From the sequence record PP400787: 64,000 nt of DNA, one strand, 5' to 3'. How positions within the stretch are numbered: the first letter of the stretch is position 1; each line of letters begins with the position of its first letter. The notes beneath the pieces were generated by a model, which searched no databases, was not told the origin of the DNA, and saw only the letters and a list, made by a program, of their open reading frames with translations. Source of the DNA: Escherichia phage FL23. Below, piece by piece: positions 1-57,590 of this stretch. The position numbers and the translations under genes were made by a program.

Positions 1-1
1 A

Positions 2-184
2 GATAAAATTAAAGAATTGGTAGCTTTAATTCGCAAAGCAGATGAGGAACTTAGTGACTTTTCTTGGTTTTCGGCAGGCATTGCAAATAAAGGTATTGAA
101 AAATTTGAAGCTAAAGTTGATAATGCTTTAGAAGCGTTAGATATGTTTCTTGATGAAATTATCGATCATAATACGAGAGTTTAA
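2..184 (+). CDS. hypothetical protein, C-terminal fragment (start upstream of window)
   Basis: Open frame from window edge to TAA; same strand and packing as neighbours; no motif recognised. Confidence 0.3.
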   Translation, partial: DKIKELVALIRKADEELSDFSWFSAGIANKGIEKFEAKVDNALEALDMFLDEIIDHNTRV

Positions 185-186
185 TT

Positions 187-381
187 ATGCTAACACGTGA
201 ACAGTTTGAAAAAATTATTAAATTAGCACGTGATATTGAAATAGATTCATACCAATTAGCAGTTGAGCATTGTGAAGGATATTCATACGACGGTATAGAA
301 GCAGCTAAAAAGGATTTGGATAAATCCAAAGCTAAGTTAGTTCAATATCTTGAAATGATTAGGTGGAATAATGAAAACTGA
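187..381 (+). CDS. hypothetical protein (64 aa)
   Basis: ORF track; starts 3 nt after previous stop; acidic/helical composition. Confidence 0.4.
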   Translation: MLTREQFEKIIKLARDIEIDSYQLAVEHCEGYSYDGIEAAKKDLDKSKAKLVQYLEMIRWNNEN

Positions 382-546
382 AAAGCAGATGTTTTTAATG
401 AAGCTAATTGAAGAATATGCTAATGCAGTTTCTGACTATGAATGTTCTTCTCGGGAAAGAGGCACAGCTTTCGCTAAAGAAGAAATGAAAATCATGGTTG
501 ATGCTCACACAAAGCTTCAGAATTTTATTGAAAACGTCATTTAATG

Positions 547-583
547 GTTTACAAGTTGGCAAGATTATGATATAGTAATCTTG
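547..583 (+). promoter_or_regulatory. T4-type early promoter (GTTTAC -35, ~18 nt spacer, TATAGT -10) with dyad caagatt/aatcttg flanking the -10
   Basis: GTTTAC at 547-552; TATAGT ~571-576; same architecture as the promoter at 37371. Confidence 0.5.
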
Positions 584-711
584 TCAACTGCCAAGGAGAA
601 GAGAATGAAAGTTTTGTTTGTTGTGTATGTGATGATTCAATATAATTATCCAATGTTTACTTATAATCTGGTGAACAACATTATTGATATTATTCAAAGG
701 AGTATGTAATT

Positions 712-1269
712 GTGGGTGAGTCGAAGAGAATCAATATGAAACGATTAGTATTAGAAGTTAGTCCGCTTTTTGGTGAATTAGCTATAGAAAAAGTAAATAA
801 TATGTATCGTTTGACGCAAGAAGATGATATGTTATATTTTACGCCTAGTGAAATTGTTCGTTTAACCCAAATTGAATATGCTTATACTGATAAAATAGTA
901 AGCATCAATGATGAGCACAAAATTCATTTTTATTCTTCATGCCCAGGATTTAATATTAAAAGCGAGTCAATGTGCTTATCAATTAATAATTGGGATAATT
1001 TTATAACTAAGATTAAATATTTTTATTATTCTAATGAAAGAAAACATAGTTTAAAATGGCTCAAAAATTGCAATGCTATTATTACTAACGCTTGCAATCA
1101 GAATGATGAAACTGTTTTAAACGTATCAAAATGCTATGAAGATGGTGATGTCTTAACTATTCGTCAAATTGATGATTTTCGATCGTATATTGTCACATTT
1201 ACCAAAGACGAAGCTATTGCGTTAAAGACTTATCTCGATTCTGTTATTCCAACTATGACTTCAAAGTGA
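712..1269 (+). CDS. hypothetical protein (185 aa), paralog of the next gene
   Basis: GTG start 10 nt after AAGGAG; C-terminus (EAIALKTYLDSVIPTMTSK) resembles C-terminus of ORF 1276-1797 (EAEAMIKYLTTVTPSMKG). Confidence 0.5.
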   Translation: MGESKRINMKRLVLEVSPLFGELAIEKVNNMYRLTQEDDMLYFTPSEIVRLTQIEYAYTDKIVSINDEHKIHFYSSCPGFNIKSESMCLSINNWDNFITKIKYFYYSNERKHSLKWLKNCNAIITNACNQNDETVLNVSKCYEDGDVLTIRQIDDFRSYIVTFTKDEAIALKTYLDSVIPTMTSK

Positions 1270-1275
1270 GGAAAT

Positions 1276-1797
1276 ATGTTTATTTCAAGTGGAAGCGGTT
1301 TAATTCGTGTTGAATTTAAAAATGACATCTTTCTTATTCAAGGAGATGATATTATTAAAATGAGTTATGACGAAATCAAGAAAATTTGTCATGCTCTTGA
1401 AAGTCATGGAAAAGTGAACGCTGTTATTGATATTGGCGATTTATGGGTAACGCTTTATGAAGTATCCGAAGGATTTAACATTGAAGATGAAAATAACATT
1501 TTAGCTATTGATAAAAGAACTGATTTGTTTGATGTATTAAAAGCCTATGAGCAGTCAAATGGCGGAAGAAAAGCTGTATTGATTTATCAAAAACCGCATT
1601 CATGTGGAACTGCTTCAATCATTTCAAATATTGAAGGCGAAGTTGATACTTATATGTGTGTTTTAAAAGCTGATGGTGACCGTCATCCGGATTTTATTTC
1701 TATTCGTCAAAACAATGGAGAAATTTCATTATCAAAATCAGAAGCTGAAGCCATGATTAAGTATTTAACAACCGTTACGCCTTCAATGAAAGGATAA
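1276..1797 (+). CDS. hypothetical protein (173 aa), paralog of previous gene
   Basis: ORF track; shared C-terminal motif with 712-1269; 6-nt gap to previous gene. Confidence 0.5.
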   Translation: MFISSGSGLIRVEFKNDIFLIQGDDIIKMSYDEIKKICHALESHGKVNAVIDIGDLWVTLYEVSEGFNIEDENNILAIDKRTDLFDVLKAYEQSNGGRKAVLIYQKPHSCGTASIISNIEGEVDTYMCVLKADGDRHPDFISIRQNNGEISLSKSEAEAMIKYLTTVTPSMKG

Positions 1798-1799
1798 TT

Positions 1800-2261
1800 A
1801 TGATTATTAATGAAAACTCTTGGCACTATAAATTATTCAAATTGTTTAACGATGAATGGCAACGACCTAAGACACTATGCGCATATTTTTGGTCTATTGC
1901 CATTCCTACATTTTTCGTTTCTATTTTTGGATGTGCTATACTCGTAGGTCTAACAATTATTTGTGCAGAAAGCCTACAGCGTTGGATTATTTTTGGTAGT
2001 TTATGGACTTTGCTTCCATCAGCATTTATACTTGCGCTTTTGGTTGTTTTACTTATTATCGGTTCATTTGTTATTCCTGCACATTTGCGTGAAAAATATA
2101 AAGATTATAAATGGAAAAAGGATTATGCTTTACACGTAGAAAATATTGATAGGGCGTATAAAGGTTTATCTCCTATTCAACCCAAGAAATCGGTTATCGT
2201 TGAATTTTTAAAAGCTCGTAAAGCTAAAGTATGTCCTGTTATTGAATATAAGGCTGAATGA
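1800..2261 (+). CDS. small membrane protein (about 2 predicted TM helices)
   Basis: Two long hydrophobic stretches (IAIPTFFVSIFGCAILVGLTIICA and LLPSAFILALLVVLLIIGSFVIPA); stop overlaps start of next gene (ATGA). Confidence 0.5.
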   Translation: MIINENSWHYKLFKLFNDEWQRPKTLCAYFWSIAIPTFFVSIFGCAILVGLTIICAESLQRWIIFGSLWTLLPSAFILALLVVLLIIGSFVIPAHLREKYKDYKWKKDYALHVENIDRAYKGLSPIQPKKSVIVEFLKARKAKVCPVIEYKAE

Positions 2262-3271
2262 TGAAAACAGTAATGAAAAGTTATTTTGGTAGTCATCTTT
2301 ATGGAACTTCTACCCCAGAATCTGATGTAGATTTTAAAGAAATCTTTGTTCCTCCTGCTCGCGATATTCTTATCGGAAATGTTAAAGAGCATATGAGTAA
2401 AAATACTAACAATACATCATCTAAAAACACTAAAGATGATATTGACCATGAACTATACAGTCTTAAATATTTCTTTAAATTAGCAGCAGATGGTGAAACT
2501 GTAGCATTGGATATGCTTCACACTCCACCTGAACTAGTGGTTAAATCTGATTTGCCTGATGTGTGGAAGTTTATTCAAGACAACCGTTCTCGTTTTTATA
2601 CGACTAACATGAAATCCTATTTAGGATATGTCCGCAAGCAAGCTTCTAAATACGGTGTCAAGGGTTCTCGTTTGGCTGCATTACGTGATGTATTGAAAGT
2701 AGTTAATCAAATCCCTGAGCAGTGGATTGATTACCAAGAAGATGGTTCTATTAAGCAGCGTCGCACTAAAGTTGAAGATATTAAGCATCGTCTTCCAGAA
2801 AACGAATTCTGTGAATGGGTGTTCCATAATCATGAGAAAACAGGCCCACAAACGTTCTACACTGTGTTGGGTCGTAAATATCAGACAACGCTTTCTCTTA
2901 TTGAGCTTAAGCAGTCACTGAACAAATTAGATGCTGAATATGGTGAACGTGCTCGTAAGGCCGAAGCCAATGAAGGTATTGACTGGAAAGCTCTGAGTCA
3001 TGCTTGCCGTGGTGGACTCCAACTATTGGAAATTTACAAAACTGGTGACTTGGTTTATCCACTCCAAGATGCTCCATTTATTCTCGACGTGAAGTTGGGT
3101 AAACATCCATTTAAAACGGTTCAAGAGTTTTTGGAAGATGTGGTCGATCAAGTAGAAGCAGCATCTACTGAAGCTTCTAAGAACGGTATGCAGCAAAAAG
3201 TAGACATGGGTTTCTGGGATGACTTCCTTGAGAAGGTCTATCTTGAAAACCATCGAAGTTATTATAAATGA
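2258..3271 (+). CDS. Pol-beta-superfamily nucleotidyltransferase-like protein (337 aa)
   Basis: N-terminal YFGSHLYGTSTPESDVDF = G-S-x10-D-x-D nucleotidyltransferase signature; candidate third carboxylate in VALDMLH; helical C-terminal half. Confidence 0.6.
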   Translation: MMKTVMKSYFGSHLYGTSTPESDVDFKEIFVPPARDILIGNVKEHMSKNTNNTSSKNTKDDIDHELYSLKYFFKLAADGETVALDMLHTPPELVVKSDLPDVWKFIQDNRSRFYTTNMKSYLGYVRKQASKYGVKGSRLAALRDVLKVVNQIPEQWIDYQEDGSIKQRRTKVEDIKHRLPENEFCEWVFHNHEKTGPQTFYTVLGRKYQTTLSLIELKQSLNKLDAEYGERARKAEANEGIDWKALSHACRGGLQLLEIYKTGDLVYPLQDAPFILDVKLGKHPFKTVQEFLEDVVDQVEAASTEASKNGMQQKVDMGFWDDFLEKVYLENHRSYYK

Positions 3272-3272
3272 T

Positions 3273-3300
3273 AGGGAGCCTTCGGGCTCCCTTTTTTATT
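3273..3300 (+). terminator. rho-independent terminator (GC hairpin with UUCG loop plus T-run)
   Basis: agggagccTTCGggctccc followed by ttttttattt. Confidence 0.65.
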
Positions 3301-3303
3301 TCA

Positions 3304-3385
3304 AAAATTTTTCACAAAACTGTTTACAAGCATAAAGCTTTATGGTACTATACAACTATCAACTGATACGGATTTGGAGAATAAA
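3304..3385 (+). repeat. early promoter plus conserved leader cassette, copy 1
   Basis: aaaattttttcacaaaactGTTTAC...tggTACTATacaactatcaactgatacggatttGGAGaataaa; near-identical copies at 31884, 58641, 62275 and variants at 5458, 59148, 50480. Confidence 0.6.
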
Positions 3386-4354
3386 ATGAAAACTGTAACT
3401 ATCAATAAGGGTATCTACTTCGGTAAAGAAATCTCTGGAACTTTTGAGCTCTTAGGCGAATGGTTCCCAGATAATGCTCCGGTAGATGCACAAGGAGATG
3501 GTAAAGTTTTTGTTGAAATTGACGGTAAACGTCGCGGTGTTTGGGTTTACAAATCAGACATTTCATATGATGGTGTAAAAGTTGAAGAAGTTAAAGAATC
3601 ATATGAAGATATGAAAACCCGCATTAATAAAAGATTTAATGTTATGGGAATGATGACGAATGGTATTATTAACGGAAACATTCGTTCATTAATTATCTCT
3701 GGTGCGGCGGGTATTGGTAAAACGTATTCTTTAGATAAAGCTTTGAATAAAGCAAATGATAATGGATACATTGAGTATAAAAGCATTAATGGTAAAATCT
3801 CTGGTATCGGTCTTTATGAACAGCTTTGGAATAATCGTGAAGAGAATTCTGTCCTTTTGATTGATGATGTGGATGTTTTCTCTGATATGGACATTCTTAA
3901 TCTTCTGAAAGCTGCTCTGGACACTGGAGAGACCCGTAAAGTCTGCTGGAGCACTGCATCTTCTTACTTAGAAGAAAAAGGCATTGAGCGTGAGTTTGAA
4001 TTTAAAGGAACGATTGTTTTTATCACAAACGTTGACATTGACCGCGAATTAGACCGTGGTACTAAACTTGCTCCACATTTACAAGCATTAGTGTCCCGCT
4101 CAGTTTATTTAGATTTGGGTGTTCACACTAATGAAGAAATTATGGTCAGGGTTGAAGATGTTATTCTTTCAACTGACATGATGCAAAAGCGCGGTCTTTC
4201 TGATGAAGAAACTTATAAAGCATTATCATGGATGAAAGTCAATGTTAATCGTTTACGCAATGTTTCACTGCGTACTGCTCTTTATCTTGCTGACTTTATT
4301 ATGACCGACAAAAACCATTGGGAAGAAATCGCTGAAACGGTATTATTAAAATGA
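3386..4354 (+). CDS. AAA+/P-loop ATPase (323 aa)
   Basis: Walker A GAAGIGKT, Walker B VLLIDDVD; ATG 6 nt after GGAG of the conserved leader. Confidence 0.6.
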   Translation: MKTVTINKGIYFGKEISGTFELLGEWFPDNAPVDAQGDGKVFVEIDGKRRGVWVYKSDISYDGVKVEEVKESYEDMKTRINKRFNVMGMMTNGIINGNIRSLIISGAAGIGKTYSLDKALNKANDNGYIEYKSINGKISGIGLYEQLWNNREENSVLLIDDVDVFSDMDILNLLKAALDTGETRKVCWSTASSYLEEKGIEREFEFKGTIVFITNVDIDRELDRGTKLAPHLQALVSRSVYLDLGVHTNEEIMVRVEDVILSTDMMQKRGLSDEETYKALSWMKVNVNRLRNVSLRTALYLADFIMTDKNHWEEIAETVLLK

Positions 4355-5070
4355 AAAAATATTTTACTATCTATAAAACTGAAATATTAAATTTAAAGAC
4401 AGGTATTAAGAAATACTATTATGGTCGACATATAACTAATAATACCAATGATTCGTATGTTGGTAGTGGAAATTATATAGAACGTGTAAAAGTGTCAAAT
4501 GACCACATATTATCAAAAACGGTTTTAGAAGTTTTTGATAATTATGATAAAATGGTACAAGCTGAAATATTATATATCATGGCAGGTAAATTGAAATATG
4601 GGAAAAACTGTGTTAACCTGTCATACGGGGGTGAAGGAGGAAAGGTTGCAGATGAAACTAGGATAAAATGCAAAAAGCATTCTATAAATTTATGGAAAAA
4701 TCCTAATCATATACAGCATATGAAGAAAAAGATGAAAGAGGTCACATCCACGCCGGAAGCTAAATTAAACACTTCAATAAAAACTTCGCAACGATATAAG
4801 GACCCGGTTTTTGTTAGAAAAGTTAGTAATATTATTAAAAAGAAACTAAGCAATCCTGCAGTAAAAGAAAAGCATATTAATGGAATTAAAGCTGCAAAGC
4901 GTTCTCATTTAACTATATGGCAGTATGAAGATGAATTATTCGAGCTCTGGAAAGAAACTAAATGTGGATGGAGAAAATTTACAAAGGAAGCTATAAAACA
5001 CGGATATCCAAATGAACCGTATCGTAGTATGGTATCAACTTTTCAGAAAAGACATTTAGAAGAATCCTAA
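4351..5070 (+). CDS. free-standing GIY-YIG homing endonuclease (Seg-like)
   Basis: N-terminal IYKTEILNLKTGIKKYYYGRH ... YVGSG module shared with the segF-like ORF at 40822; K/N-rich C-terminal DNA-binding repeats; ATGA overlap with upstream gene. Confidence 0.6.
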   Translation: MKKYFTIYKTEILNLKTGIKKYYYGRHITNNTNDSYVGSGNYIERVKVSNDHILSKTVLEVFDNYDKMVQAEILYIMAGKLKYGKNCVNLSYGGEGGKVADETRIKCKKHSINLWKNPNHIQHMKKKMKEVTSTPEAKLNTSIKTSQRYKDPVFVRKVSNIIKKKLSNPAVKEKHINGIKAAKRSHLTIWQYEDELFELWKETKCGWRKFTKEAIKHGYPNEPYRSMVSTFQKRHLEES

Positions 5071-5140
5071 GACAAAAAGGCAGTTCAGAAATAGATTATA
5101 TGGACTGCCATCAAAAAGATGACTAGAATTAAACTGGTAA

Positions 5141-5455
5141 ATGGAGGTAATGATGTTATACTCAAAGGCTCGTGAAATTTACGAAACTAAAATTAAAGAA
5201 GCAGTATTTAAGTTCGCAACGACAATGCGATGGACAAATGACTGGGAGTATTCAAAAAATCATAAGAAGCCCATGGTGACAAGAAAGGCTCATATGTTAG
5301 TGTTAATAGACCGTGAGCAGATTAAAGCCCGAGAAGCCCTCCAGAATCATAAAAAGGCTGCCTTTGAATGGTTTATGGATAACACTGCTCCTGAGACTAA
5401 GAAAGCAGTGAGTGCATGGTTCAGTGGAAAAAATTGTGAAAGAAGTTTCTTTTAG
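5141..5455 (+). CDS. hypothetical protein (104 aa)
   Basis: ORF track only. Confidence 0.4.
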   Translation: MEVMMLYSKAREIYETKIKEAVFKFATTMRWTNDWEYSKNHKKPMVTRKAHMLVLIDREQIKAREALQNHKKAAFEWFMDNTAPETKKAVSAWFSGKNCERSFF

Positions 5456-5457
5456 TG

Positions 5458-5515
5458 GTTTACAAGACTGTTCCTCTGTGGTACTATACAACTATCAACT
5501 ACGGAGGAACAGAAA
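5458..5515 (+). repeat. early promoter/leader cassette, variant class (identical to copy at 59148)
   Basis: GTTTACaagactgttcctctgtggTACTATacaactatcaactacGGAGGaacagaaa-ATG; arms ctgttcctc/gaggaacag are inverted repeats. Confidence 0.6.
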
Positions 5516-6043
5516 ATGAACGCTAAAGATATTTTCAACCTGGTAAATTACAACGATGGTAAATTTAAATCTGAAGCACAAAGCAAGTTCTTTAATGACA
5601 TCTCAATCGGAGGTGAAATCACGGTTGATGGAGGACAAATTTACAAATCCCGTTGGAATTGGATCGTTATTATCGATGAGATTGGTATTGTAGAAATTTA
5701 CAAGAATACGAATAAAAATCGTACATTACACTGGTCTCGTGATACTAACGAACAATACAAAAAGGATAAAGCATCTAAATTATCTCGTGTAACTCAAGAA
5801 GATATTGAGTTCATCAAGAAAGATATTTTGATGTATGATAACTTAATTGCTGAAGAGCAAGCTGTTATTGATAAATTTGATGAGATTAAAGCTTCTCGTG
5901 AAATTCCTGATTTTATGAAAGAATCAGTAAATGAACGATACACTCTCATTTCAGAGCGTATCGAAACTTACAAAAAGCAAAGAGCTGAACGCCAAAATAC
6001 TCTTCGGAAGTTTGAAGAACGGTTAAAGACGGTACTCGCATAA
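5516..6043 (+). CDS. hypothetical protein (175 aa)
   Basis: ORF track; ATG directly after cassette SD. Confidence 0.5.
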   Translation: MNAKDIFNLVNYNDGKFKSEAQSKFFNDISIGGEITVDGGQIYKSRWNWIVIIDEIGIVEIYKNTNKNRTLHWSRDTNEQYKKDKASKLSRVTQEDIEFIKKDILMYDNLIAEEQAVIDKFDEIKASREIPDFMKESVNERYTLISERIETYKKQRAERQNTLRKFEERLKTVLA

Positions 6044-6098
6044 CCGCTTTATACCAAGGATGGTATAATGGTTCTAAGCCCTTTTAATTGAGATTATT

Positions 6099-6332
6099 AT
6101 GAAACGGTTGATAATTAAAAGATTGAATTTATTGATATGTTGTTTATGTGTAGTAGTTGCATATGGTTATTACGCAATTAATGATTATATGCACTATAAA
6201 GATTATGATGTTACTGTAGTTAATACCCTTACAGGAACTCAAGGAAAGGGGTCTAGTTTATTGCTGTATATGAACTCAAAGACGGTTATAGATTTAGCGA
6301 ATATATTTCACCGGAGATGTATTCTTCAATAG
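6099..6332 (+). CDS. small hydrophobic protein (77 aa)
   Basis: ORF track; N-terminal hydrophobic segment LNLLICCLCVVVAYGYYAI. Confidence 0.4.
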   Translation: MKRLIIKRLNLLICCLCVVVAYGYYAINDYMHYKDYDVTVVNTLTGTQGKGSSLLLYMNSKTVIDLANIFHRRCILQ

Positions 6333-6499
6333 AAAAAGGTGATAATATTACTGTAAGTTTACGTCCTTTCGACGTAAAACAGACATGGTTTGATAATATT
6401 GTTTGGTTCTTTGGAATGGTATTAGTTCAATCTGTGTGTGGTGCTTATATAGTCTGTTCTATCTTATTCTGTATATTTAGTAAAATTGAAATTGAGTGA
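6317..6499 (+). CDS. small hydrophobic protein (60 aa)
   Basis: ORF track; C-terminal hydrophobic segment. Confidence 0.3.
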   Translation: MYSSIEKGDNITVSLRPFDVKQTWFDNIVWFFGMVLVQSVCGAYIVCSILFCIFSKIEIE

Positions 6500-6506
6500 G
6501 GAAAAT

Positions 6507-7394
6507 ATGTCAGTAGTAATTAATAATGTCAATGCAGTAATTAAATCTTTAGTTAATAAAAAATTGAATGAATGGACTGTACTTTGTCGTGGAGAGCCAG
6601 ATAAATTTTTTCATAGATTTAACCCAACTTTGGATTTGAATGTTATTGACAGAGATGTTCATGCCAAAATTTTAGATAAATTTAAAGTTGATATTGGATT
6701 TGGATTAGAAAAACATTTACAGCGAACAAACGGGTCTGGAATGAGTTTATCTAATCGCATTATGAAAGCCCTTAATAAAATTGGAGCGTTGTCTCGTATT
6801 AATGCGAGTGAAATTCTTCGTAATTATAATAAAGGATATGACCTTTATGGTCGACTAATGCCGAAGTTATCATTTGACCAAATGATTGCAGATTTGTGGG
6901 AAAATCAGCGACGATTATTAGCATTAGGCGCTCGATTGGCTAAAGGTCTAGATAAACAAATGATTTTTAAGACCAATAATACAGAAGACCTTAAATGCTT
7001 TAAATTTAGTATTCGCGGAGATGATTATTACATCAGAGCTCACTCTACAGATTATGTTAATATGGGGCATCATCTCTGTTTAGCTTTTGAAGTTTTAAAA
7101 GAAGCTGGAACATTAGAATATACGTCTGGTGCTAAATGCCCGATTGGTTCAAATTGTATTTTGATTTATCGCCCGGATGAATCCAGTTCAACTAAATTGC
7201 CTACGAAACCTGTACCAGTTCGTAGTAATGAAAAACATTCTGAACAAATTGATTATTTTAATAAACAGATTGAAGAGCTGAATATTTCTATTCAACAATA
7301 TGATGATGAAATTTTCAGACTATCTGGATTGAGTAGTAAAGCTAAATCTGAGCGTGAAAAGTTAATTAAAATTGTTGATTTACTTAAATCTTAA
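6507..7394 (+). CDS. hypothetical protein with C-terminal coiled coil, tandem paralog 1 of 4
   Basis: ATG after GAGG; central RRLLALGARLAKG-type motif and heptad-like C-terminal tail shared with next three genes. Confidence 0.5.
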   Translation: MSVVINNVNAVIKSLVNKKLNEWTVLCRGEPDKFFHRFNPTLDLNVIDRDVHAKILDKFKVDIGFGLEKHLQRTNGSGMSLSNRIMKALNKIGALSRINASEILRNYNKGYDLYGRLMPKLSFDQMIADLWENQRRLLALGARLAKGLDKQMIFKTNNTEDLKCFKFSIRGDDYYIRAHSTDYVNMGHHLCLAFEVLKEAGTLEYTSGAKCPIGSNCILIYRPDESSSTKLPTKPVPVRSNEKHSEQIDYFNKQIEELNISIQQYDDEIFRLSGLSSKAKSEREKLIKIVDLLKS

Positions 7395-7402: not shown

Positions 7403-8431
7403 ATGAAAACTCGTTCTCAAATTGAAGATATGGTTCGTACTGCCAGCGATACTCGTAATGTTATGACATTTTTGTGTGAAAATAATTTAGACCCTGATAA
7501 AGTTAATCGTGCTATTCATCACTTTAAATATCTAAATAGCAGTGAATGGTTACGTCATTTTAGTAAAGCGGGGTATATTACACAAATGACTGCTCGTGAG
7601 CAGCTCACCGATTTCTGTAAAACTATTGATTATAAAAATCCTCTATTTGTTCAAGGCGTTGGTCAAAGTAAGGTCGATTTATCATCTGGATTTTTCAATC
7701 CAAATCATTATCGTATTGAATGGAGATTTATTGCTCTGTTCCGTAGACAATTAAAGCAAATTTTATCAACTGCGAGTCGATTGAAAGGTTCTGATATTAA
7801 CTTAAAGAACCTGAAATTTGATGGTTATACTCTTCAGATGGAAGTAAGACCATTAAAAGAAAATAACAGAACTGCACGAATTAGCTTTAAACCTAATACA
7901 AAAAATTCTCTTTCAATTTGCGAATGCCTTAAATCGCAGTTGACAGAAGCATTTAAGTATATGGACGTTGTTGCTGCTGTCCAGTCTAAGATTTTACCTC
8001 GTTTTGAGCGATTTAAATTAGACACAACAACATATGAACTTGATATGATCGTTTCATTTAAATACGATTTTTTGAGAAAGGACGAAGTCACGCAAGAGAA
8101 AAAGCAAGAAGTGCAAGATAACTTAAATTTAAATTTATCCAATTACTCATCAAACGATCCTAAATTTTGGATGTATAGTTCAGGTAATAAGGATGCATGG
8201 AAATTCAATAAAGTGAATTTTCTTCCTGTTGAAAATCCGAGTCTTAAACCTGTTGAAAAATGGCATGCCGATGCGATTGAGAAGTCTATCAAGGCAGTAG
8301 ATGATGAACTCGTTAAAGCAACTAATGAAGTGCTAGAAGCTGAAAAGATGCTAGAAAAAGCTCAAGAAAAAGTCAAAAATCTTACGAAGCAACGTTCTAA
8401 ACTGAACAATGCACTAAATGCACTAAACTAG
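7403..8431 (+). CDS. hypothetical protein with C-terminal coiled coil, tandem paralog 2 of 4
   Basis: ORF track; motif RRQLKQILSTASRLKG; coiled-coil tail. Confidence 0.5.
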   Translation: MKTRSQIEDMVRTASDTRNVMTFLCENNLDPDKVNRAIHHFKYLNSSEWLRHFSKAGYITQMTAREQLTDFCKTIDYKNPLFVQGVGQSKVDLSSGFFNPNHYRIEWRFIALFRRQLKQILSTASRLKGSDINLKNLKFDGYTLQMEVRPLKENNRTARISFKPNTKNSLSICECLKSQLTEAFKYMDVVAAVQSKILPRFERFKLDTTTYELDMIVSFKYDFLRKDEVTQEKKQEVQDNLNLNLSNYSSNDPKFWMYSSGNKDAWKFNKVNFLPVENPSLKPVEKWHADAIEKSIKAVDDELVKATNEVLEAEKMLEKAQEKVKNLTKQRSKLNNALNALN

Positions 8432-8460
8432 TTTACTTTTCCACAAGGATGTGGTATAAT
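8431..8460 (+). promoter_or_regulatory. T4-type early promoter
   Basis: GTTTAC-ttttccacaaggatgtgg-TATAAT; same element upstream of rIIA.1 at 54166. Confidence 0.55.
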
Positions 8461-13319: not shown

Positions 13320-13532
13320 TAATTTAATTCAGGCTCATGTAAAACCGGTCTAAACGGGGAACCTCTCTAGTAGACAATCCCGTGCTAAATGTTTTTAGAA
13401 AAACTAAATGCCTAACGACTAACCGTGATGAATGTAGCGGTGTAGAATAGAAGCTAATGCTATTCGAAACGGCCGGCATCGAAAGATGAAGATATAGTCT
13501 AATCTGCATGGCGACATGCAGCAGTCATCTTG

Positions 13533-13540
13533 TATAAATA
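13533..13540 (+). promoter_or_regulatory. T4 late promoter (TATAAATA) inside intron, upstream of the intron endonuclease gene
   Basis: Exact TATAAATA 30 nt upstream of the HEG ATG. Confidence 0.5.
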
Positions 13541-13569
13541 AGATTATCTTATGAATACGAGGTGAAACA

Positions 13570-14340
13570 ATGAAATGGATAAAAAGACGTTGTACTAAAA
13601 TAAAAGATAAAGACGCATTTACATACTTAGTTAAGTTTTCTAATGGCGACATTTATATCGGTTATAAAAAATTTAGAACAATTAAAAACAAGCCCACAAA
13701 CTGGAAAACTTACACAACGTCATCTAAGTATATAAATGAACGCTTAAAAACTGATACACCTACTAAATGGATAATTTTAAAAACATTTGATAGTTATAAA
13801 GATGCATTAAAACATGAAGAAGAGGTCATACGTAAATATTTTTATAGCAAAAAATGTTTAAATAAATCCATAGGCGGTAAAAAGTTTTATAAGCATCCGG
13901 ATACTGAAGAACATATTCAAAAATTAAGAGATGCTCATAAGGGTAAAGTGTTATCCGAATCTCATAAAAACAATATAAAATCTTCTGTAGCTGAATATTA
14001 TGCTAAAAACGGAAGATCTAAGGAACATGTGCAAAATAATATCAATAGTCGAAAAAGTAAAAAACAAATATCGATAAAGCTTAAAAATAAAACTTTTAGA
14101 AGTTTTAAAAAAGCAGCGGAATATTTAAATTGCACTGAAAGTGAAGTCGAAACTCATCCTCTTGTTTTGAGTATTAAGACTACTATTCATAAAGTTCCTG
14201 AATATGTGGTTGTTGACGGTATTAAGTATACGTCTTATATAGAAGCAGCTAAAGCGCTAAATTTTCATCCTAGCACTATAAAAGAACGTTGCATATCTAT
14301 GGACTATCCAAATTTTGTTGTTTCATATAAACGGGCATGA
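13570..14340 (+). CDS. intron-encoded GIY-YIG homing endonuclease (I-TevII-like)
   Basis: 256 aa ORF wholly inside the nrdD intron; YLVKFSNGDIYIGYK GIY-YIG-like module; size close to T4 I-TevII. Confidence 0.65.
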   Translation: MKWIKRRCTKIKDKDAFTYLVKFSNGDIYIGYKKFRTIKNKPTNWKTYTTSSKYINERLKTDTPTKWIILKTFDSYKDALKHEEEVIRKYFYSKKCLNKSIGGKKFYKHPDTEEHIQKLRDAHKGKVLSESHKNNIKSSVAEYYAKNGRSKEHVQNNINSRKSKKQISIKLKNKTFRSFKKAAEYLNCTESEVETHPLVLSIKTTIHKVPEYVVVDGIKYTSYIEAAKALNFHPSTIKERCISMDYPNFVVSYKRA

Positions 14341-14366: not shown

Positions 14367-15646
14367 ATGAAGTAAATACACTTTTCAGCTCTAATGGGCA
14401 GACTCCTTTTGTAACAATTACATTTGGTACAGGAACTGACTGGACTGAACGAATGATTCAGAAAGCAATTCTGAAAAATCGTATTAAAGGTCTTGGTCGT
14501 GATGGGATAACTCCTATTTTCCCTAAGCTTGTTATGTTTGTTGAAGAAGGTGTTAATCTTTATAAAGACGATCCGAACTATGATATTAAGCAGCTTGCTC
14601 TAGAGTGCGCAAGCAAAAGAATGTATCCTGATATTATTTCAGCTAAGAACAATAAAGCTATCACTGGTTCATCTGTTCCTGTTTCTCCAATGGGTTGCCG
14701 TAGTTTCTTGAGCGTATGGAAAGATTCGACTGGTAATGAAATTCTTGATGGACGTAATAATCTTGGTGTTGTAACACTGAATCTTCCTCGTATCGCATTA
14801 GATTCTTATATTGGAACACAGTTCAATGAACAGAAATTTGTTGAATTGTTCAATGAACGAATGGATTTATGTTTTGAAGCTTTGATGTGTAGAATTAGTT
14901 CCTTAAAAGGAGTTAAAGCTACTGTTGCTCCTATTCTTTACCAAGAAGGTGCATTTGGGGTTCGTCTTAAACCTGATGACGATATAATTGAGTTATTTAA
15001 AAACGGTAGAAGTTCAGTGTCTTTAGGATACATTGGTATTCACGAATTGAATATTCTTGTCGGTCGTGATATTGGACGAGAAATTTTAACTAAAATGAAT
15101 GCTCATCTTAAACAGTGGACTGAAAGAACCGGATTTGCTTTTAGTTTATATTCGACTCCTGCTGAAAACCTTTGTTATCGCTTCTGTAAACTCGATACAG
15201 AAAAATATGGAAGCGTAAAAGATGTTACCGATAAAGGCTGGTACACTAACAGTTTCCATGTCTCAGTAGAAGAAAATATTACTCCGTTTGAAAAGATTTC
15301 TCGTGAAGCGCCATATCATTTCATTGCGACAGGTGGTCACATTTCTTATGTTGAACTTCCTGATATGAAAAATAACTTGAAAGGTCTTGAGGCCGTATGG
15401 GATTATGCTGCACAACATTTAGATTATTTTGGTGTTAATATGCCAGTGGATAAATGTTTTACATGCGGAAGTACCCATGAAATGACTCCTACTGAAAACG
15501 GATTTGTTTGTTCTATTTGTGGAGAAACTGATCCTAAAAAGATGAATACAATAAGAAGAACATGTGGCTATCTTGGAACTCCTAGCGTTGTTCCATGGAA
15601 TTTAGGTAAAATGAAAGAAATGGTAAAACGAGTAAAACATGCATAG
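14367..15646 (+). CDS. nrdD: anaerobic ribonucleoside-triphosphate reductase, exon 2
   Basis: Continues NrdD frame (EVNTLFSSNGQTPFVTITFGTG ...); C-terminal CxxC ... CxxC zinc ribbon; exon1+exon2 = 605 aa. Confidence 0.75.
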
Positions 15647-16469
15647 ATATTATATAATTTATAAAATAACAAATATAATTAATTCAAAGGAATATATCGG
15701 TGCGCATAGCACCGATAACATAAATGACGGTTATATGGGGTCAGGAACATTGATTCGTGCCGCTTTATTAAAATATGGTAGAAAAAATTTTAATAAAGAA
15801 ATTTTACATGTTTTTGATAATGAAAAACAAATGTATGATAAAGAAGCTGAACTTGTAACCGAAGAGTATTGTCTAAAAGAAAATACATATAATATTAAAC
15901 CTGGTGGAAAAGGTGGAACTGCTTATGAACAGACACTTGAACATCGCCACAAAAATAGTTTGGCAAATAAAGGTAAAAAGAAAACAGAAAAAACTAAAAT
16001 AGCTATTTCACGCGCTTTAAAGAAATATAAACGTACGCCAGAGCATCAAGCAAATTTAAATAAAGCTGTAAGCATAGCTATGAAGCGAAAAGATGTTAGA
16101 AGTAAATTAGTTGGAGAGCGGTCTGAGAAAGATAAATTATCTATATCAAACGGTGTTAAAAAATATTACAATTCTTTGAGCGAAGAAGAACGCGTTCTTC
16201 TTCGCAAGCGAATTATTGAAGGTAAAAAGAATTCTCCCATGTCATTGGAATCTAGACAAAAGCTTTCAAAAGCTTTAAAAGGACTTCAAGTTGGTTCAAA
16301 AAATCCAATGTATGGAAAAATTTCTCCAACTAGCAAAACCGTTTCAGTTGACGGTATTAAATATGATTCAATTAAAAAGTGCTCAAATGCCATAAAAGTT
16401 TCTAGACATCTTATACTAAAACGCTGTAATTCTACTGATGAAGCTTGGAAAAATTGGATATTATTATGA
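15639..16469 (+). CDS. free-standing GIY-YIG homing endonuclease between nrdD and nrdG
   Basis: YYIIYKITNIINSKEYIGAH ... GYMGSG; repeated K-rich NUMOD-like C-terminal repeats; overlaps nrdD stop and nrdG start. Confidence 0.65.
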   Translation: MHRYYIIYKITNIINSKEYIGAHSTDNINDGYMGSGTLIRAALLKYGRKNFNKEILHVFDNEKQMYDKEAELVTEEYCLKENTYNIKPGGKGGTAYEQTLEHRHKNSLANKGKKKTEKTKIAISRALKKYKRTPEHQANLNKAVSIAMKRKDVRSKLVGERSEKDKLSISNGVKKYYNSLSEEERVLLRKRIIEGKKNSPMSLESRQKLSKALKGLQVGSKNPMYGKISPTSKTVSVDGIKYDSIKKCSNAIKVSRHLILKRCNSTDEAWKNWILL

Positions 16470-20907: not shown

Positions 20908-20930
20908 AACCAAAACAAAGAGGATATTAA

Positions 20931-22133
20931 ATGAAAGTATGTATTTTTATGGCTCGAGGTCTTGAAGGTTGTGGTGTAACTAAATTTTCTCTTGAGCAAC
21001 GTGATTGGTTTATTAAAAATGGTCATGAAGTAACTTTGGTTTATGCTAAAGATAAATCATTTACTCGTAATTGCGCGCATGATTATAAATCATTTTCAAT
21101 TCCGGTTTTATTGGCAAAAGAATACGATAAAACACTTAAGCTGGTAAATGATTGTGATATTCTAATTATCAATTCAGTTCCTGCTACTTCGGTTGAAGAA
21201 GACACTATTAATAACTATAAAAAAATTATTGATAACATTAAACCTTCTGTTCGTGTTGTAGTTTATCAGCATGACCATTCTTCTCTTTCTTTGCGTCGAA
21301 ATTTGGGATTAGAAGAAACTGTTCGTCGAGCTGATGTTATTTTTAGCCATTCTGATAATGGCGATTTTAATAAAGTTCTGATGAAAGAATGGTATCCAGA
21401 AACTGTTTCTCTGTTTGATGATATTGAAGAAGCACCGACAGTATATAACTTTCAGCCTCCTATGGATATTGCGAAGGTTCGGTCAACTTACTGGAAAGAT
21501 GTTTCTGAAATTAACATGAATATCAACCGTTGGATTGGTCGTACGACTACATGGAAAGGTTTTTATCAGATGTTTGATTTTCACGAAAAACATCTTAAAC
21601 CTGCAGGACTAAGTACTATTATGGAAGGTCTGGAACGTTCTCCAGCGTTCATTCCTATTAAAGAAAAAGGAATTCCATACGAGTATTATCGTCTTCATCA
21701 AGTAGACCAAATTAAAATTGCTCCTAATTTGCCAACGCAAATTCTTGACCGTTATGTAAATAGCGAAATGCTTGAACGCATGAGTAAATCCGGATTTGGT
21801 TATCAGTTGAGTAAGTTGGATAAAAAATATCTGCAACGTTCTTTAGAATATACTCATCTCGAGCTTGGTGCTTGCGGTACAATTCCTGTTTTCTGGAAAT
21901 CTACTGGCGAAAATTTAAAATTCCGTGTTGATAATACTCCTTTGACCTCGCATGATAGCGGTATCATTTGGTTTGATGAAAATGATATGGAATCAACGTT
22001 TGAACGTATTAAAGAACTGTCATCTGACCGAACTCTTTATGACCGTGAGCGAGAAAAAGCATATGAATTTTTGTATCAGCATCAAGATTCAAGCTTCTGC
22101 TTTAAAGAACAGTTTGACATTATTACAAAATAA
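20931..22133 (+). CDS. agt: DNA alpha-glucosyltransferase
   Basis: 400 aa; MKVCIFMARGLEGCGVTKFSLEQRDWFIKNGHEVTLVYAK closely matches recalled T4 AGT. Confidence 0.85.
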   Translation: MKVCIFMARGLEGCGVTKFSLEQRDWFIKNGHEVTLVYAKDKSFTRNCAHDYKSFSIPVLLAKEYDKTLKLVNDCDILIINSVPATSVEEDTINNYKKIIDNIKPSVRVVVYQHDHSSLSLRRNLGLEETVRRADVIFSHSDNGDFNKVLMKEWYPETVSLFDDIEEAPTVYNFQPPMDIAKVRSTYWKDVSEINMNINRWIGRTTTWKGFYQMFDFHEKHLKPAGLSTIMEGLERSPAFIPIKEKGIPYEYYRLHQVDQIKIAPNLPTQILDRYVNSEMLERMSKSGFGYQLSKLDKKYLQRSLEYTHLELGACGTIPVFWKSTGENLKFRVDNTPLTSHDSGIIWFDENDMESTFERIKELSSDRTLYDREREKAYEFLYQHQDSSFCFKEQFDIITK

Positions 22134-31822: not shown

Positions 31823-31883
31823 CAAGTAATATAAATCTATACTTATGAAAAACAGATGATTCTGGATCCTTTGAATTCATTAA

Positions 31884-31965
31884 AAATTTTTTCACAAAAC
31901 TGTTTACATCCTTGTTCTTCCATGGTACTATACAACTATCAACTGATACGGATTTGGAGAATGAA
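31884..31965 (+). repeat. early promoter plus conserved leader cassette, copy 2
   Basis: Same aaaattttttcacaaaactGTTTAC ... ggtactatacaactatcaactgatacggatttggaga block as 3304-3385. Confidence 0.6.
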
Positions 31966-32346
31966 ATGAAAATCGCTATTTTGGTTATTGCATTAGGTCT
32001 TACTGGTTGTGTATCTCAAGGACCGGTAGTAAATCAGTCTGATGTAGGAAAAATTGTAAACTGTTCAAGCAAATTTTATAATCCTAATGTCAAGTGTTAT
32101 AAAGAAGCTCCAAAACAGACAGTAGAACAAATGCAGGCGAATTTTGACGAAGCTATTCGTCCAGATGAATCTGCTCAAGCATATCGTAATTCGGATGTAA
32201 TTACACGCGAAGAAAAAATTGAAAATTACTGCGCCGTGCTTTGGGCAAATTGGGCTAATAATTACCAGTTGCGTACTGGTAAAAATGCTCCAATGGAGTA
32301 TGTAGTGAATTCTTATAATTCATGCGTAAAAAATTTAACTAAGTGA
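31966..32346 (+). CDS. predicted lipoprotein (126 aa; T4 imm.1 position)
   Basis: Signal peptide with lipobox LTGC (MKIAILVIALGLTGCVSQG). Confidence 0.6.
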   Translation: MKIAILVIALGLTGCVSQGPVVNQSDVGKIVNCSSKFYNPNVKCYKEAPKQTVEQMQANFDEAIRPDESAQAYRNSDVITREEKIENYCAVLWANWANNYQLRTGKNAPMEYVVNSYNSCVKNLTK

Positions 32347-32758: not shown

Positions 32759-33499
32759 ATGATTAGTGACTCTATGACAGTTGAAGAAATCCGTCTTCAT
32801 TTGGGGCTTGCATTAAAGGAAAAAGATTTCGTAGTTGATAAAACTGGTGTTAAAACTATTGAAATTATTGGCGCATCATTTGTAGCAGATGAACCGTTTA
32901 TTTTTGGCGCTCTTAATGATGAATACATTCAGCGTGAACTTGAATGGTATAAATCTAAGAGCTTGTTTGTTAAAGATATTCCAGGTGAAACACCAAAGAT
33001 TTGGCAGCAGGTAGCATCTTCTAAAGGCGAAATTAACTCGAATTATGGTTGGGCTATCTGGTCAGAAGATAACTATGCTCAGTATGATATGTGTTTAGCT
33101 GAACTTGGTCAAAATCCTGATTCTCGACGTGGTATCATGATTTATACTCGTCCATCCATGCAATTTGACTACAATAAAGATGGTATGTCAGATTTCATGT
33201 GTACGAATACAGTACAGTACCTGATTCGTGATAAGAAAGTCAATGCAGTAGTAAGCATGCGCTCAAATGACGTGGTCTTCGGATTCCGTAATGATTATGC
33301 ATGGCAAAAATACGTATTAGATAAATTAGTATCTGATTTGAATGCAGGCGATTCAACTCGTCAGTATAAAGCAGGTTCTATTATATGGAATGTTGGAAGT
33401 CTTCATGTATATTCTCGTCATTTTTACTTGGTTGATCATTGGTGGAATACTGGCGAAACTCATATTGTGAAAAAAGATTATAACGGTGAGTGGAAATGA
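32759..33499 (+). CDS. 42: dCMP hydroxymethylase gp42
   Basis: 246 aa; thymidylate-synthase-like fold region; T4 gp42 length and position. Confidence 0.85.
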   Translation: MISDSMTVEEIRLHLGLALKEKDFVVDKTGVKTIEIIGASFVADEPFIFGALNDEYIQRELEWYKSKSLFVKDIPGETPKIWQQVASSKGEINSNYGWAIWSEDNYAQYDMCLAELGQNPDSRRGIMIYTRPSMQFDYNKDGMSDFMCTNTVQYLIRDKKVNAVVSMRSNDVVFGFRNDYAWQKYVLDKLVSDLNAGDSTRQYKAGSIIWNVGSLHVYSRHFYLVDHWWNTGETHIVKKDYNGEWK

Positions 33500-34338
33500 T
33501 TCAATTCGTAATTCCAAGTTATCAACGTGTAGGGGCAGTTTCTGCCCTTGATATGTTTCCGACTGATTATGAACCACATATTGTAGTACGTGAACACGAA
33601 GAAGAAGCTTATTATGATGCTTATGGGTCTAGAGCTAAAATTGTAACTATTCCTGATGATGTTAATGGAATTGCCGGTACTCGTAAAGCAATTACTGATA
33701 TGTATGCAGGTCAACGAATCTGGATGATTGACGATGATACTACTATTCGTATGAGTTCAATACGAAAGAGAGACGATAAACGGCGCGTAGATAAAATTAA
33801 TCAATTAACTCGTGAACAGTTCTATGAATTAATTCAATACGTTGAGGATGCTATGGATTGCGGGTATTATCACGGTCATGCTCGTCTACCAATTTTTAAA
33901 ATTACTTCATCTTGGGGTAATTATCGTGAAAACTCATATGGATTCACGAATACATGGTATGACCTCGGAAAACTTACGACAGAACAAATTGGGTATGGAA
34001 AAATTGATTTATGTGAAGATATGTATGCATTTCTCAATTTAATTAATCAAGGTTATCCGCATTTGGCCTTGTTCAAATATCTAGTTGTATCTGGAAAATC
34101 ACACGCTCCCGGTGGGTGTAGTTCAATTCGTAGTAATTCTAAACATAATAGAGCTCTTGAGCAAATCAATAGAGAGTTTCCAGAGCAAGCTCGTTGGAAA
34201 ACATCGAATATTGAAAAACGAAAATCGTTGGGTGAAGAAGACGAGCCATTAAAGGTTCTTCGCATGTGTGTTTCGCGTAAAGAAAAATCAGAAGCATTTC
34301 ATAAGTTTAATGCTATTCATCCAATAGCAGTTGATTAA
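33496..34338 (+). CDS. GT-A-fold glycosyltransferase in the T4 beta-gt slot (candidate glucosyl-HMC glucosyltransferase of T2/T6 type)
   Basis: N-terminal VIPSYQR and MIDDD (DxD) motifs; not similar to T4 beta-glucosyltransferase; located between 42 and uvsX. Confidence 0.55.
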   Translation: MIQFVIPSYQRVGAVSALDMFPTDYEPHIVVREHEEEAYYDAYGSRAKIVTIPDDVNGIAGTRKAITDMYAGQRIWMIDDDTTIRMSSIRKRDDKRRVDKINQLTREQFYELIQYVEDAMDCGYYHGHARLPIFKITSSWGNYRENSYGFTNTWYDLGKLTTEQIGYGKIDLCEDMYAFLNLINQGYPHLALFKYLVVSGKSHAPGGCSSIRSNSKHNRALEQINREFPEQARWKTSNIEKRKSLGEEDEPLKVLRMCVSRKEKSEAFHKFNAIHPIAVD

Positions 34339-34415
34339 TGCCTAAATTTATTGTGTTATAATTACTTTATCTTTAACCAGTGAGGAAAATATAATGATGC
34401 CTATGGAAAAAATGA

Positions 34416-35597
34416 ATGTCTATTGCAGATTTAAAATCCCGTTTGATTAAAGCTTCCACTTCTAAAATGACTGCTGAACTGACTACATCTAAATTCTTTA
34501 ATGAAAAGGATGTAATCCGTACAAAAATCCCAATGCTTAATATCGCTATTTCCGGCGCGATTGATGGTGGTATGCAGTCTGGTTTAACCATTTTTGCAGG
34601 TCCTTCTAAACACTTTAAATCAAATATGTCTTTGACTATGGTTGCGGCGTATTTGAACAAATATCCTGACGCGGTTTGTCTATTTTATGATAGTGAATTT
34701 GGTATTACTCCAGCTTATTTGCGATCCATGGGAGTTGACCCTGAACGAGTAATTCATACGCCAATTCAGTCAGTTGAACAACTGAAAATTGATATGGTGA
34801 ATCAGCTTGAAGCTATTGAGCGCGGTGAAAAGGTTATTGTATTCATCGACTCAATCGGTAATATGGCTTCTAAGAAAGAAACGGAAGATGCCTTGAATGA
34901 AAAATCTGTGGCAGATATGACTCGTGCTAAATCACTGAAGTCATTATTCCGTATTGTTACTCCTTATTTTAGTATTAAAAACATTCCATGCGTTGCGGTT
35001 AACCATACAATTGAAACAATTGAAATGTTTAGTAAAACCGTGATGACAGGCGGTACAGGCGTAATGTATTCGGCTGATACTGTATTCATTATCGGTAAAC
35101 GTCAGATTAAAGATGGTTCTGATCTTCAGGGGTATCAATTTGTTCTAAATGTAGAAAAATCTCGTACCGTTAAAGAAAAAAGTAAATTCTTTATTGATGT
35201 TAAATTTGACGGTGGTATCGATCCTTATTCTGGATTGTTAGATATGGCTCTTGAATTAGGATTTGTAGTAAAACCTAAAAATGGTTGGTATGCTCGTGAA
35301 TTTCTTGACGAAGAAACTGGCGAGATGATTCGCGAAGAAAAATCTTGGCGTGCAAAAGATACCAATTGCACTACATTCTGGGGTCCTTTATTTAAGCATC
35401 AGCCATTCCGAGATGCTATTAAACGCGCTTATCAGTTAGGTGCTATTGATAGTAATGAAATTGTTGAAGCTGAAGTCGACGAATTGATTAACTCAAAGGT
35501 TGAAAAATTTAAATCTCCAGAAAGTAAAAGTAAATCAGCTGCTGATTTAGAAACTGACCTAGATCAGTTAAGTGATATGGAAGAATTTAATGAATAA
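34416..35597 (+). CDS. uvsX: RecA-like recombinase UvsX
   Basis: 393 aa; Walker A GPSKHFKS; matches recalled T4 UvsX. Confidence 0.9.
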   Translation: MSIADLKSRLIKASTSKMTAELTTSKFFNEKDVIRTKIPMLNIAISGAIDGGMQSGLTIFAGPSKHFKSNMSLTMVAAYLNKYPDAVCLFYDSEFGITPAYLRSMGVDPERVIHTPIQSVEQLKIDMVNQLEAIERGEKVIVFIDSIGNMASKKETEDALNEKSVADMTRAKSLKSLFRIVTPYFSIKNIPCVAVNHTIETIEMFSKTVMTGGTGVMYSADTVFIIGKRQIKDGSDLQGYQFVLNVEKSRTVKEKSKFFIDVKFDGGIDPYSGLLDMALELGFVVKPKNGWYAREFLDEETGEMIREEKSWRAKDTNCTTFWGPLFKHQPFRDAIKRAYQLGAIDSNEIVEAEVDELINSKVEKFKSPESKSKSAADLETDLDQLSDMEEFNE

Positions 35598-37371: not shown

Positions 37372-37407
37372 TTTACAAGCTGACAAGACTATAGTATAGT
37401 AGTCTTG
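37371..37407 (+). promoter_or_regulatory. T4-type early promoter with dyad caagact/agtcttg flanking the -10
   Basis: GTTTAC-18nt-TATAGT upstream of dmd. Confidence 0.5.
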
Positions 37408-37429
37408 TTGGTTAAATGAGGAGATTGTT

Positions 37430-37871: not shown

Positions 37872-37931
37872 CTGTTTACTTTTATTGGAAATTGAGATAC
37901 TATATAAACATAAACTACTGAGGAGATTATC

Positions 37932-40245: not shown

Positions 40246-40316
40246 ATGTCCTCCTTATTGCTTTATATATTTATTGTATAATTAATCTACTAACCCATGA
40301 ATTGAAAGGAAAAATA

Positions 40317-41808: not shown

Positions 41809-41873
41809 ATTTAAATGGTTTACTTTCCAAAATGAGTATGGTATAATAGAATTATCTTATAGAGGAGAGCACT

Positions 41874-43908: not shown

Positions 43909-43975
43909 TTCAAAAAGTTGTTTACTTTCCTTCCTAACAATGATATGATAGCTTCTGAAGTATATGGAGGCTATC

Positions 43976-57582: not shown

Positions 57583-57590
57583 GGAAAATT

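Follow-up and report, generated by a model that had tools for sequence, protein, structure and literature searches.

The early promoters of phage T4 combine UP element, -35, TGn and -10 with "additional regions of consensus" (Hinton 2010, PMC2988021, reviewing Liebig & Ruger 1989). In the PeSL elements of T4 and PST, i.e., within the genus of the phage studied here, an AT-rich tract is followed by TTTACW-N17-TAYWAT, a Shine-Dalgarno sequence (SD) and an ATG (Comeau, Arbiol & Krisch 2014, PMC4122927). According to the legend of Fig. 6A of that paper, T4 ndd.4/.5 are exchanged for PST ORF268/269 in the ndd region. The crossovers of the RB49/phi1 PeSLs were placed between the -10 and the SD/ATG (Arbiol et al. 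2010, PMC2839356), and recombination in T4 is published to occur at microhomologies of 6-10 bp. The target consensus of the endoribonuclease RegB with ribosomal protein S1 is GG*AGRAYARAA (Durand et al. 2006, PMC1702504; Uzan & Miller 2010, PMC3014915). RegB needs no specific sequence upstream of the GGAG (Durand et al. 2006); among its published substrates, T4 motA RNA is a good one while nrdC.8 is moderately cleaved.

Here, we analysed a stretch of 64,000 nucleotides of Escherichia phage FL23 (sequence record PP400787), which is called the window throughout. An earlier note on this stretch had reported a near-identical promoter-plus-leader block at five places in front of unrelated genes. 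All five copies are present, with the variants spanning 50461-50561 and 62266-62364 (motA), the coding sequences behind them are unrelated, and their promoter spacers differ. The list was incomplete, since a repeat search combined with a promoter regular expression revealed three further members (5433-5518, 59123-59208 and a degenerate one at 37849-37934), such that the family has 8 copies. The repeated block is the known T-even early-promoter/PeSL family with RegB/S1-type SDs, i.e., a feature that has already been described.

The copies follow the early-promoter layout GTTTAC, 18 nt ending in TGG, and TACTAT, with an A/T-rich tract from -60 to -36 in all 8 copies; their 3' part holds the SD and the start codon of the gene that follows. 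In an alignment of the copies, conservation is seen in the UP tract, the -35 and -10, the early transcribed region and the SD, but not in the 18-nt spacer or the coding regions. The -10 hexamer is TACTAT in 8/8 copies, and the sequence behind it is ACAACTATCAACT or closely similar. The 10 other early-type promoters of the same strand show TATAAT, TATAGT, TATTAT or TATGAT instead and have unrelated leaders. Among orthologs the hexamer does vary, since the motB.2 promoter (window 48889-48948 vs. T4 8243) has TATTAT in the window and TACTAT in T4, where it is presumably the well-studied P8.1.

The extent of identity is beyond chance. An exact three-way block of 39 nt, TGGTACTATACAACTATCAACTGATACGGATTTGGAGAA, is found at 3343-3381, 31923-31961 and 58681-58719, for which the chance expectation is none, and the longest exact pairwise tract covers 41 nt (3342-3382 and 31922-31962). 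The 35-mer TACTATACAACTATCAACTGATACGGATTTGGAGA occurs exactly at 3346, 31926 and 58684 and had 0 matches in 100 dinucleotide shuffles. The core TATCAACT(N0-4)GATAC is found 5 times in the window vs. 0 expected.

Three of the copies, all on the + strand as are the cassettes described below, form the A-type. The nrdC.10 cassette (3297-3388) is identical to the T4 nrdC.10 promoter from -35 to ATG. It consists of the UP tract (3297-3321), -35 GTTTAC (3322-3327), a spacer ending in TGG (3328-3345), -10 TACTAT (3346-3351), a predicted transcription start site (TSS) at ~3358, the SD/RegB site GGAGAATAAAA (3376-3386) and the ATG at 3386. The gene behind it, labelled an AAA+ ATPase by the earlier note, is nrdC.10 (322 aa), whose P-loop NTPase matches are weak and sub-threshold only. 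The gene of the second copy (31877-31968; -35 at 31902, -10 at 31926-31931, SD GGAGAATGAAA at 31956-31966, ATG at 31966), the lipoprotein of the note, is imm.1, which belongs to DUF5481 and carries a lipobox. The third cassette (58635-58726; -35 at 58660, -10 at 58684-58689, SD GGAGAACAAAA at 58714-58724) starts directly after the denB stop codon and is referred to as denB-distal. It precedes a 68-aa ORF (58724-58930) to which a family search assigned no family.

The B-type comprises the cassettes of nrdC.8 (5433-5518; -35 at 5458, -10 at 5482-5487, SD GGAGG at 5503, ATG at 5516) and of ndd.4, a gene of 37 aa (59123-59208). The motA variant (62266-62364) has its -35 at 62291, its -10 at 62315-62320, the SD/RegB site GGAGATTAGAA at 62350-62360 and the ATG at 62362; Pfam matches to MotA_activ and MotCF confirm the gene label. 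A second variant (50461-50561; -35 ATATAC at 50486, -10 at 50510-50515, RegB consensus GGAGAATAAAA at 50549-50559) precedes an 89-aa ORF (50559-50828) between motB and cef. Its -10 is spanned by a 13-bp perfect inverted repeat (50492-50504 / 50522-50534; z -4.8). The degenerate copy (37849-37934) belongs to spackle (sp), with -10 TACTAT at 37898-37903, leader ATAAACATAAACTACTGAGGAG and ATG at 37932.

The note had called the cassettes PeSL-like. This holds insofar as they belong to the same element family as the PeSLs of T4 and PST from the Krisch group, but only 2/8 copies have a directly adjacent upstream stem-loop. These are the nrdC.10 cassette, where a terminator-like UUCG hairpin with T-run (3273-3292, + strand) lies directly 5' and represents the "SL" of a PeSL, and the motA cassette (terminator-like hairpin with T-run at 62237-62258, + strand). 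Terminator scans of 1-7000 and 57000-64000 found none adjoining the copies at 5433, 58635 and 59123, and no hairpin with T-run is visible by eye at 37849 and 50461. For the imm.1 copy (31877), a GGGACC...GGTCCC hairpin lies on the 5' side at a distance of about 65 nt.

Next, we considered the RNA that starts at the cassettes' own promoters. The leader MFEs range from -0 to -4.8 kcal/mol with z-scores of about -0.7 to +1.8 (family members: -0.7 to +1.2), and no Rfam family matched anywhere in the window at gathering thresholds. Inspection of the sequence by eye showed no MotA box or late promoter overlapping a cassette and no mini-ORF in the leader.

The earlier note had further suggested that the GGAG-containing leader is a RegB substrate. 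Scanning the window for the consensus resulted in only three 11/11 matches (3376, 50549, 58714), all of them inside the cassette family. Matches of 10/11 were obtained for imm.1 (31956), motA (62350), the motB leader and the motB.2 GGAU site. The scan thus recovers published RegB substrates, as motA, the motB leader and motB.2 are among the latter, and motA mRNA is indeed a known RegB target in T4. The B-type and sp copies score lower. In total, 12 matches with at least 10/11 were observed on the + strand vs. ~4.7 expected per strand from shuffling. Within own-promoter leaders, the candidate RegB/S1 sites are predicted to be single-stranded. RegB of the related phage FL44 has 153 aa, 153/154 identical to T4 RegB, and is encoded outside the window. 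The idea that the cassettes are candidate substrates is supported by the 11/11 matches of three copies in a phage that encodes RegB. RegB does not account for the identical leader, since nothing specific is needed 5' of the GGAG, such that it explains 11 nt and not the rest.

Comparison with related genomes shows that the cassettes are found in fixed places. Positions 2500-6500 and the 68-aa ORF (58727-58930) are each a 100% match to Escherichia phage FL44 (Tequatrovirus). The + strand of the window corresponds to the T4 early strand, leading from the mobD region via nrdC, genes 43-47, 41, 56, dda, motB, 39, rIIA/B, denB, ndd and 52 to motA. T4 carries the same cassettes before nrdC.10, nrdC.8, imm.1, sp, in motB-cef, denB-distal, and before ndd.4 and motA, and has further family members at e.8, frd.3, mobD.5 and internal-protein loci. 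A query of 85 nt was found in 549 phage records at about 6-8 places in each, and the record of phage Lutter has a terminator followed by a promoter annotated at the orthologous nrdC.10 site. Each site keeps its locus-specific spacer in FL44, T4, PST and five IMG/VR genomes. The comparative set comprises about 8 genomes, of which several are partial, and the IMG/VR core scan covers 20 loci from a handful of contigs, i.e., it is a small population-level test.

We also evaluated whether the cassettes are hyper-conserved, which was rejected: conservation between orthologs is 96.1% overall, compared to 94.6% and 98.1% for the flanks. As this is no higher than the flanks, the comparison does not demonstrate purifying selection on the mid-leader. 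The divergence of orthologous cassettes is bimodal, with 0% at nrdC.10, motA and motB-cef and 7-10% at imm.1, denB-distal and ndd.4.

We consider it quite probable that the cassettes are paralogs of each other and represent a single subclass of T4-type immediate-early promoters, including the 5' UTR and translation-initiation region, and that their identity reflects constraint, descent and exchange together. That is, an A/T-rich UP tract, -35 GTTTAC, an 18-nt locus-specific spacer whose terminal TGG would provide an extended -10, and -10 TACTAT would be followed by a conserved start region (ACAACT-ATCAACT), a short G-poor unstructured leader, the GGAG SD, an A-rich tail and the ATG. Judged from the sequence and the T4 literature, host sigma-70 RNA polymerase would fire these promoters right after infection, the open leader would allow for efficient translation, and RegB with ribosomal protein S1 would cut inside the GGAG and switch the message off within minutes. 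The identity would then have three layers. First, the promoter through about +16 would be under functional constraint; lambda PL and T7 A1, two strong phage promoters, also begin with AUC. Second, the SD and tail would be constrained as combined ribosome-binding and RegB/S1 site. Third, the roughly 15-25 nt in between (+13 to SD) would be lineage-specific, resulting from common descent and from gene conversion, i.e., ectopic homologous exchange that takes place now and then between cassettes in a phage whose recombination is very active. In addition, the conserved blocks and the RTAAAATGAAA start-codon junction may serve as joints for the insertion and deletion of small ORFs, following the published PeSL modular-shuffling idea, while the cassettes themselves would remain in fixed positions.

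The strongest rival holds that the whole leader is a specific site or signal, e.g., for a shut-off function of early promoters, and is kept identical by selection alone without any exchange. The invariance of the nrdC.10 and motA cassettes from -35 to ATG in four genomes each fits this view, and the published reviews give no mechanism for early shut-off, which would leave room for such a signal. RB69, which belongs to a different genus, provides evidence on both sides. In its first 50 kb, where a strict promoter regular expression yielded 5 sites, only TACTAT-N6-ATCAACTAC is kept, at imm.1. The conservation of this core shows that the start-site region is constrained, whereas the leader past about +16 is not conserved, contrary to what selection on the whole leader predicts. 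Neither is it shared between subfamilies that have the same promoter, nor is there a predicted leader structure or an Rfam family, and RegB requires nothing 5' of its GGAG.

Direct evidence for exchange comes from alleles that match paralogs rather than orthologs. The window's ndd.4 and nrdC.8 cassettes are identical in 63/63 positions from -35 through ATG+2 (5458-5520 and 59148-59210) although they are located 54 kb apart. With T4's ndd.4 cassette, in contrast, only 56/62 aligned positions match (6 differ), while the flanks are 96-99% identical. The ndd.4 identity with nrdC.8 is, at the sequence level, a signature of gene conversion. The converted allele is also found in one IMG/VR genome, while the alternative allele (T4, PST and others) begins with TACCCTATCAAC, like the promoters of internal-protein genes. 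Similarly, the imm.1 spacer alternates among genomes between an e.8-like and an nrdC.8-like form, and the window's mosaic carries the T4 e.8 spacer. In T4, the promoters of frd.3 and nrdC.10 are the same up to ACAACTATC, and this includes the spacer. For the ACT indel, slippage could be an alternative origin to conversion. As the ndd.4 and imm.1 cassettes are mosaic, leader identity beyond the part kept in RB69 fits common descent plus exchange. The recombination potential proposed in the earlier note thus receives support from the mosaic alleles, which point to sequence exchange between cassettes, and we regard selection alone as improbable.

Next, we studied whether the cassettes are linked to gene-content changes. 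Compared to T4, the window shows 14 indels or replacements, of which 2/14 touch any of the 18 promoter cassettes; this is not significant (P=0.19). In one of these two, T4 has lost an internal part of the 89-aa ORF, and no cassette exchange is involved. The ORF is intact in the window, while T4 6550-6557 has retained an 11-codon frameshifted remnant with an internal deletion of ~200 bp flanked by AAAA. Sites of T4-relative differences in the window are 40256-40277, 20915-20940, 33481-34428, 15621-16458, 1294-2257 and 4351-5070. Homing-endonuclease genes (mobD, mobC, mobB, segA, mobA/60) are found at many of the segments specific to T4. The window has seg-like GIY-YIG ORFs at 4351-5070 and about 15645-15899, and a tblastn search of it, unlike in T4, detected no dam, mobB, mobC, mobD, beta-glucosyltransferase, 49.2 or 49.3.

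Among about 8 genomes, on the other hand, ORFs are gained or lost at all three A-type loci, with junctions in the leader or at the ATG. Downstream of the denB-distal cassette, PST has ORF269 followed by ORF268, the window has ORF269 only, T4 has neither, and ORF268 alone is found at five IMG/VR loci from four contigs; every one of the joints lies at the start-codon repeat RTAAAATGAAA. The window's 68-aa ORF, the equivalent of PST ORF269, thus appears as a gene-sized indel module (58724-58939, + strand) bounded by the repeat AAAATG (58721-58726, 58934-58939), and ORF269 is found in 122 records. In PST, the nested ORF269/ORF268 series (1198-1673) is situated between denB and ndd.6, in the same ndd region as the exchange of Fig. 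6A in Comeau et al. (2014), and a mini-ORF, MKIVEIEL, overlaps the ndd.6 start. At imm.1, four genomes have an extra ORF of 78-85 aa between the cassette's ATG and imm.1. At nrdC.10, contig IMGVR_UViG_3300045988_128797 (1620-2375) contains a 730-bp three-ORF module inside the leader, between ACAACTATCAA and ATCAAAGGAGAATAAAATG. The module encodes ORFs of 49, 87 and 66 aa along with two more hairpin-embedded promoters, and both of its joints lie at a CTATCAA core. The joints of ORF turnover fit the published PeSL crossover zones as well as T4's recombination at 6-10 bp of microhomology. The gene-content link suggested by the note is therefore seen as ORF turnover at the three A-type loci but not as a significant enrichment of window-vs.-T4 breakpoints.

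These junctions also bear on a second rival, according to which the block is autonomously mobile, i.e., moves by transposition or mini-circle integration and thereby carries or captures genes. The same block in front of unrelated genes, T4's frd.3 copy of the nrdC.10 promoter with its spacer, and the PeSL mini-circles detected in RB49/phi1 speak for such a process. However, each locus has its own spacer, no recombinase or terminal repeats are associated with the block, and the junctions consist of short microhomologies, as is usual for general recombination in T4. Given locus-own spacers and fixed orthologous positions in T4, PST, FL44, the IMG/VR contigs and about 549 records, the cassettes are not wandering elements, so that the term "mobile" used by the earlier note is overstated and we consider this explanation very unlikely.

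A third alternative places a structured cis-regulatory RNA element, be it a riboswitch, a thermosensor or an sRNA target, in the A-type leader, and a small possible UAUCA-loop-UGAUA hairpin in the GATAC-containing copies might speak for it. We reject it as highly implausible, because neither the cassettes' own transcripts nor read-through RNA fold more stably than shuffled sequences. Furthermore, the predicted TSS cuts away part of this mini-stem, B-type copies are without the latter and the whole window has 0 Rfam matches.

We also investigated RNA that reads into the cassettes from upstream. In such read-through RNA, 9/18 early promoters are located in strong predicted hairpins that span the -10 (z from -2.3 to -6.5), with one arm in the promoter spacer and the other at the transcript start, often over the SD, among them 5468-5512, 59158-59202, 50492-50534, 553-588, 37378-37413, 48895-48940, 43940-43985 and 49900-49935. 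The SD is buried by the hairpin at nrdC.8, ndd.4, motB.2 and the gene at 43976. For the B-type, spacer positions 5468-5482 pair with 5498-5512 over 15 bp (MFE -23.2), and the two B-type stems (5468-5512, 59158-59202) reach z -5.8 and -6.5. Since the spacer provides the 5' arm and the SD lies within the 3' arm, only RNA initiated upstream would fold. The motB.2 GGAU site (48936) sits in a strong read-through hairpin as well. For the A-type and motA cassettes, read-through z-scores are +0.35 (nrdC.10), +1.0 (imm.1), -1.8 (denB-distal) and -0.45 (motA), i.e., no RBS-sequestering hairpin was found in A-type copies when read-through folds are compared with shuffles.

Strong start-codon structure is found for 6/15 early-promoter-associated genes vs. 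6/85 others (Fisher P=0.002). As a positive control, the gene 49 ortholog (13495-13590; 13570) was recovered, where the late promoter TATAAATA lies in an RBS-sequestering hairpin (z -5.9). Across 8 variants, 95.8% of the B-type stem is paired; the changes are wobble-only and one-sided, no double compensatory change is seen among these variants, and the shuffle control was uninformative. The arm sequences differ between promoters, and part of the variation is G·U wobble. At the sequence level, the wobble variation and differing arms are hints at a role of the hairpins in RNA.

Based on these folding predictions, we put forward tentatively, as a possible but rather doubtful model, that about half of the T4-type early promoters are placed inside hairpins as a general "transcript-origin gate": read-through RNA would be translationally silent and RegB-resistant, and translation would be restricted to RNA from the own promoter. 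Such a gate would complement the RegB cleavage used by the unstructured A-type cassettes and extend the late-gene mechanism to early genes. If confirmed, the promoter-spanning hairpins would explain the translational independence of tandem early genes. As a weaker add-on, the +1 to +16 core (ATCAACTAC) may act as an operator for early-promoter shut-off.

The window contains other repeated elements as well. A second near-identical early-promoter family, TAGTTTACTTT(T/A)CCACAAGGATGTGGTATAAT, is found at 8429-8460, 54164-54195 and 41816-41847, where the first two are 97% identical. Its spacer has a CCACA-AGGA-TGTGG hairpin, which also occurs in the spacer of the denB-distal cassette. Furthermore, intergenic hairpins of the GGGCTTCGGCCC type with UUCG tetraloops are located at 22127, 26837, 29007, 52274, 57784, 18526 and 57549; these are classic T4 stable tetraloop terminators or stabilisers.

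In summary, the window rediscovers T4 early promoter/leader cassettes, RegB sites and the PeSL shuffling idea, all of which are ordinary for this phage group. It provides a worked example, within a single 64-kb window, of constrained parts, of parts homogenised by exchange, and of a leader core and start-codon repeat that serve as joints of ORF turnover.

Finally, we relate the cassettes to the known systems. The PeSLs of RB49/phi1 are likewise repeated blocks of ~100 bp with promoter, SD and ATG that accompany small ORFans (Arbiol et al. 2010, PMC2839356). They represent a different sequence family with near-consensus TTGACA/TATAAT promoters and polyG/polyC terminator stems, and their mini-circles were shown experimentally. 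The B-type and several other early promoters resemble T4 e, soc, 49 and I-TevI, where an RBS-sequestering hairpin includes an internal promoter. The published hairpins, however, use late promoters, and a 2010 review gives this mechanism for late-promoter genes only, whereas the window's cases involve early promoters.

With known RegB/S1 sites, the cassettes share the GGAG SD followed by an A-rich 7-mer in an unstructured part of early transcripts. The site covers 11 nt, such that the 25 nt of leader upstream of it, which puzzled the earlier note, are outside. With the T4 early promoters in general, they have in common the UP/-35 GTTTAC/TGn/-10 architecture and extra consensus regions, and every copy has a T4 ortholog. 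The window's family is one subclass of these promoters, set by -10 TACTAT and the shared transcribed region, and its identities of 39-63 nt are not predicted by the general consensus. The T4/PST PeSLs come from the same genus and share the layout of the elements. In the portion of Comeau et al. (2014, PMC4122927) drawn on here, the TACTAT/ATCAACT subfamily is neither singled out nor tied to RegB. The denB-distal junctions form a nested deletion series at a start-codon repeat of roughly 9 nt and do not necessarily represent an exchange of two full PeSLs as in T4/PST. The cassette and ORF at 58635-58930 themselves correspond to PST ORF269 of the T4/PST PeSL pair.
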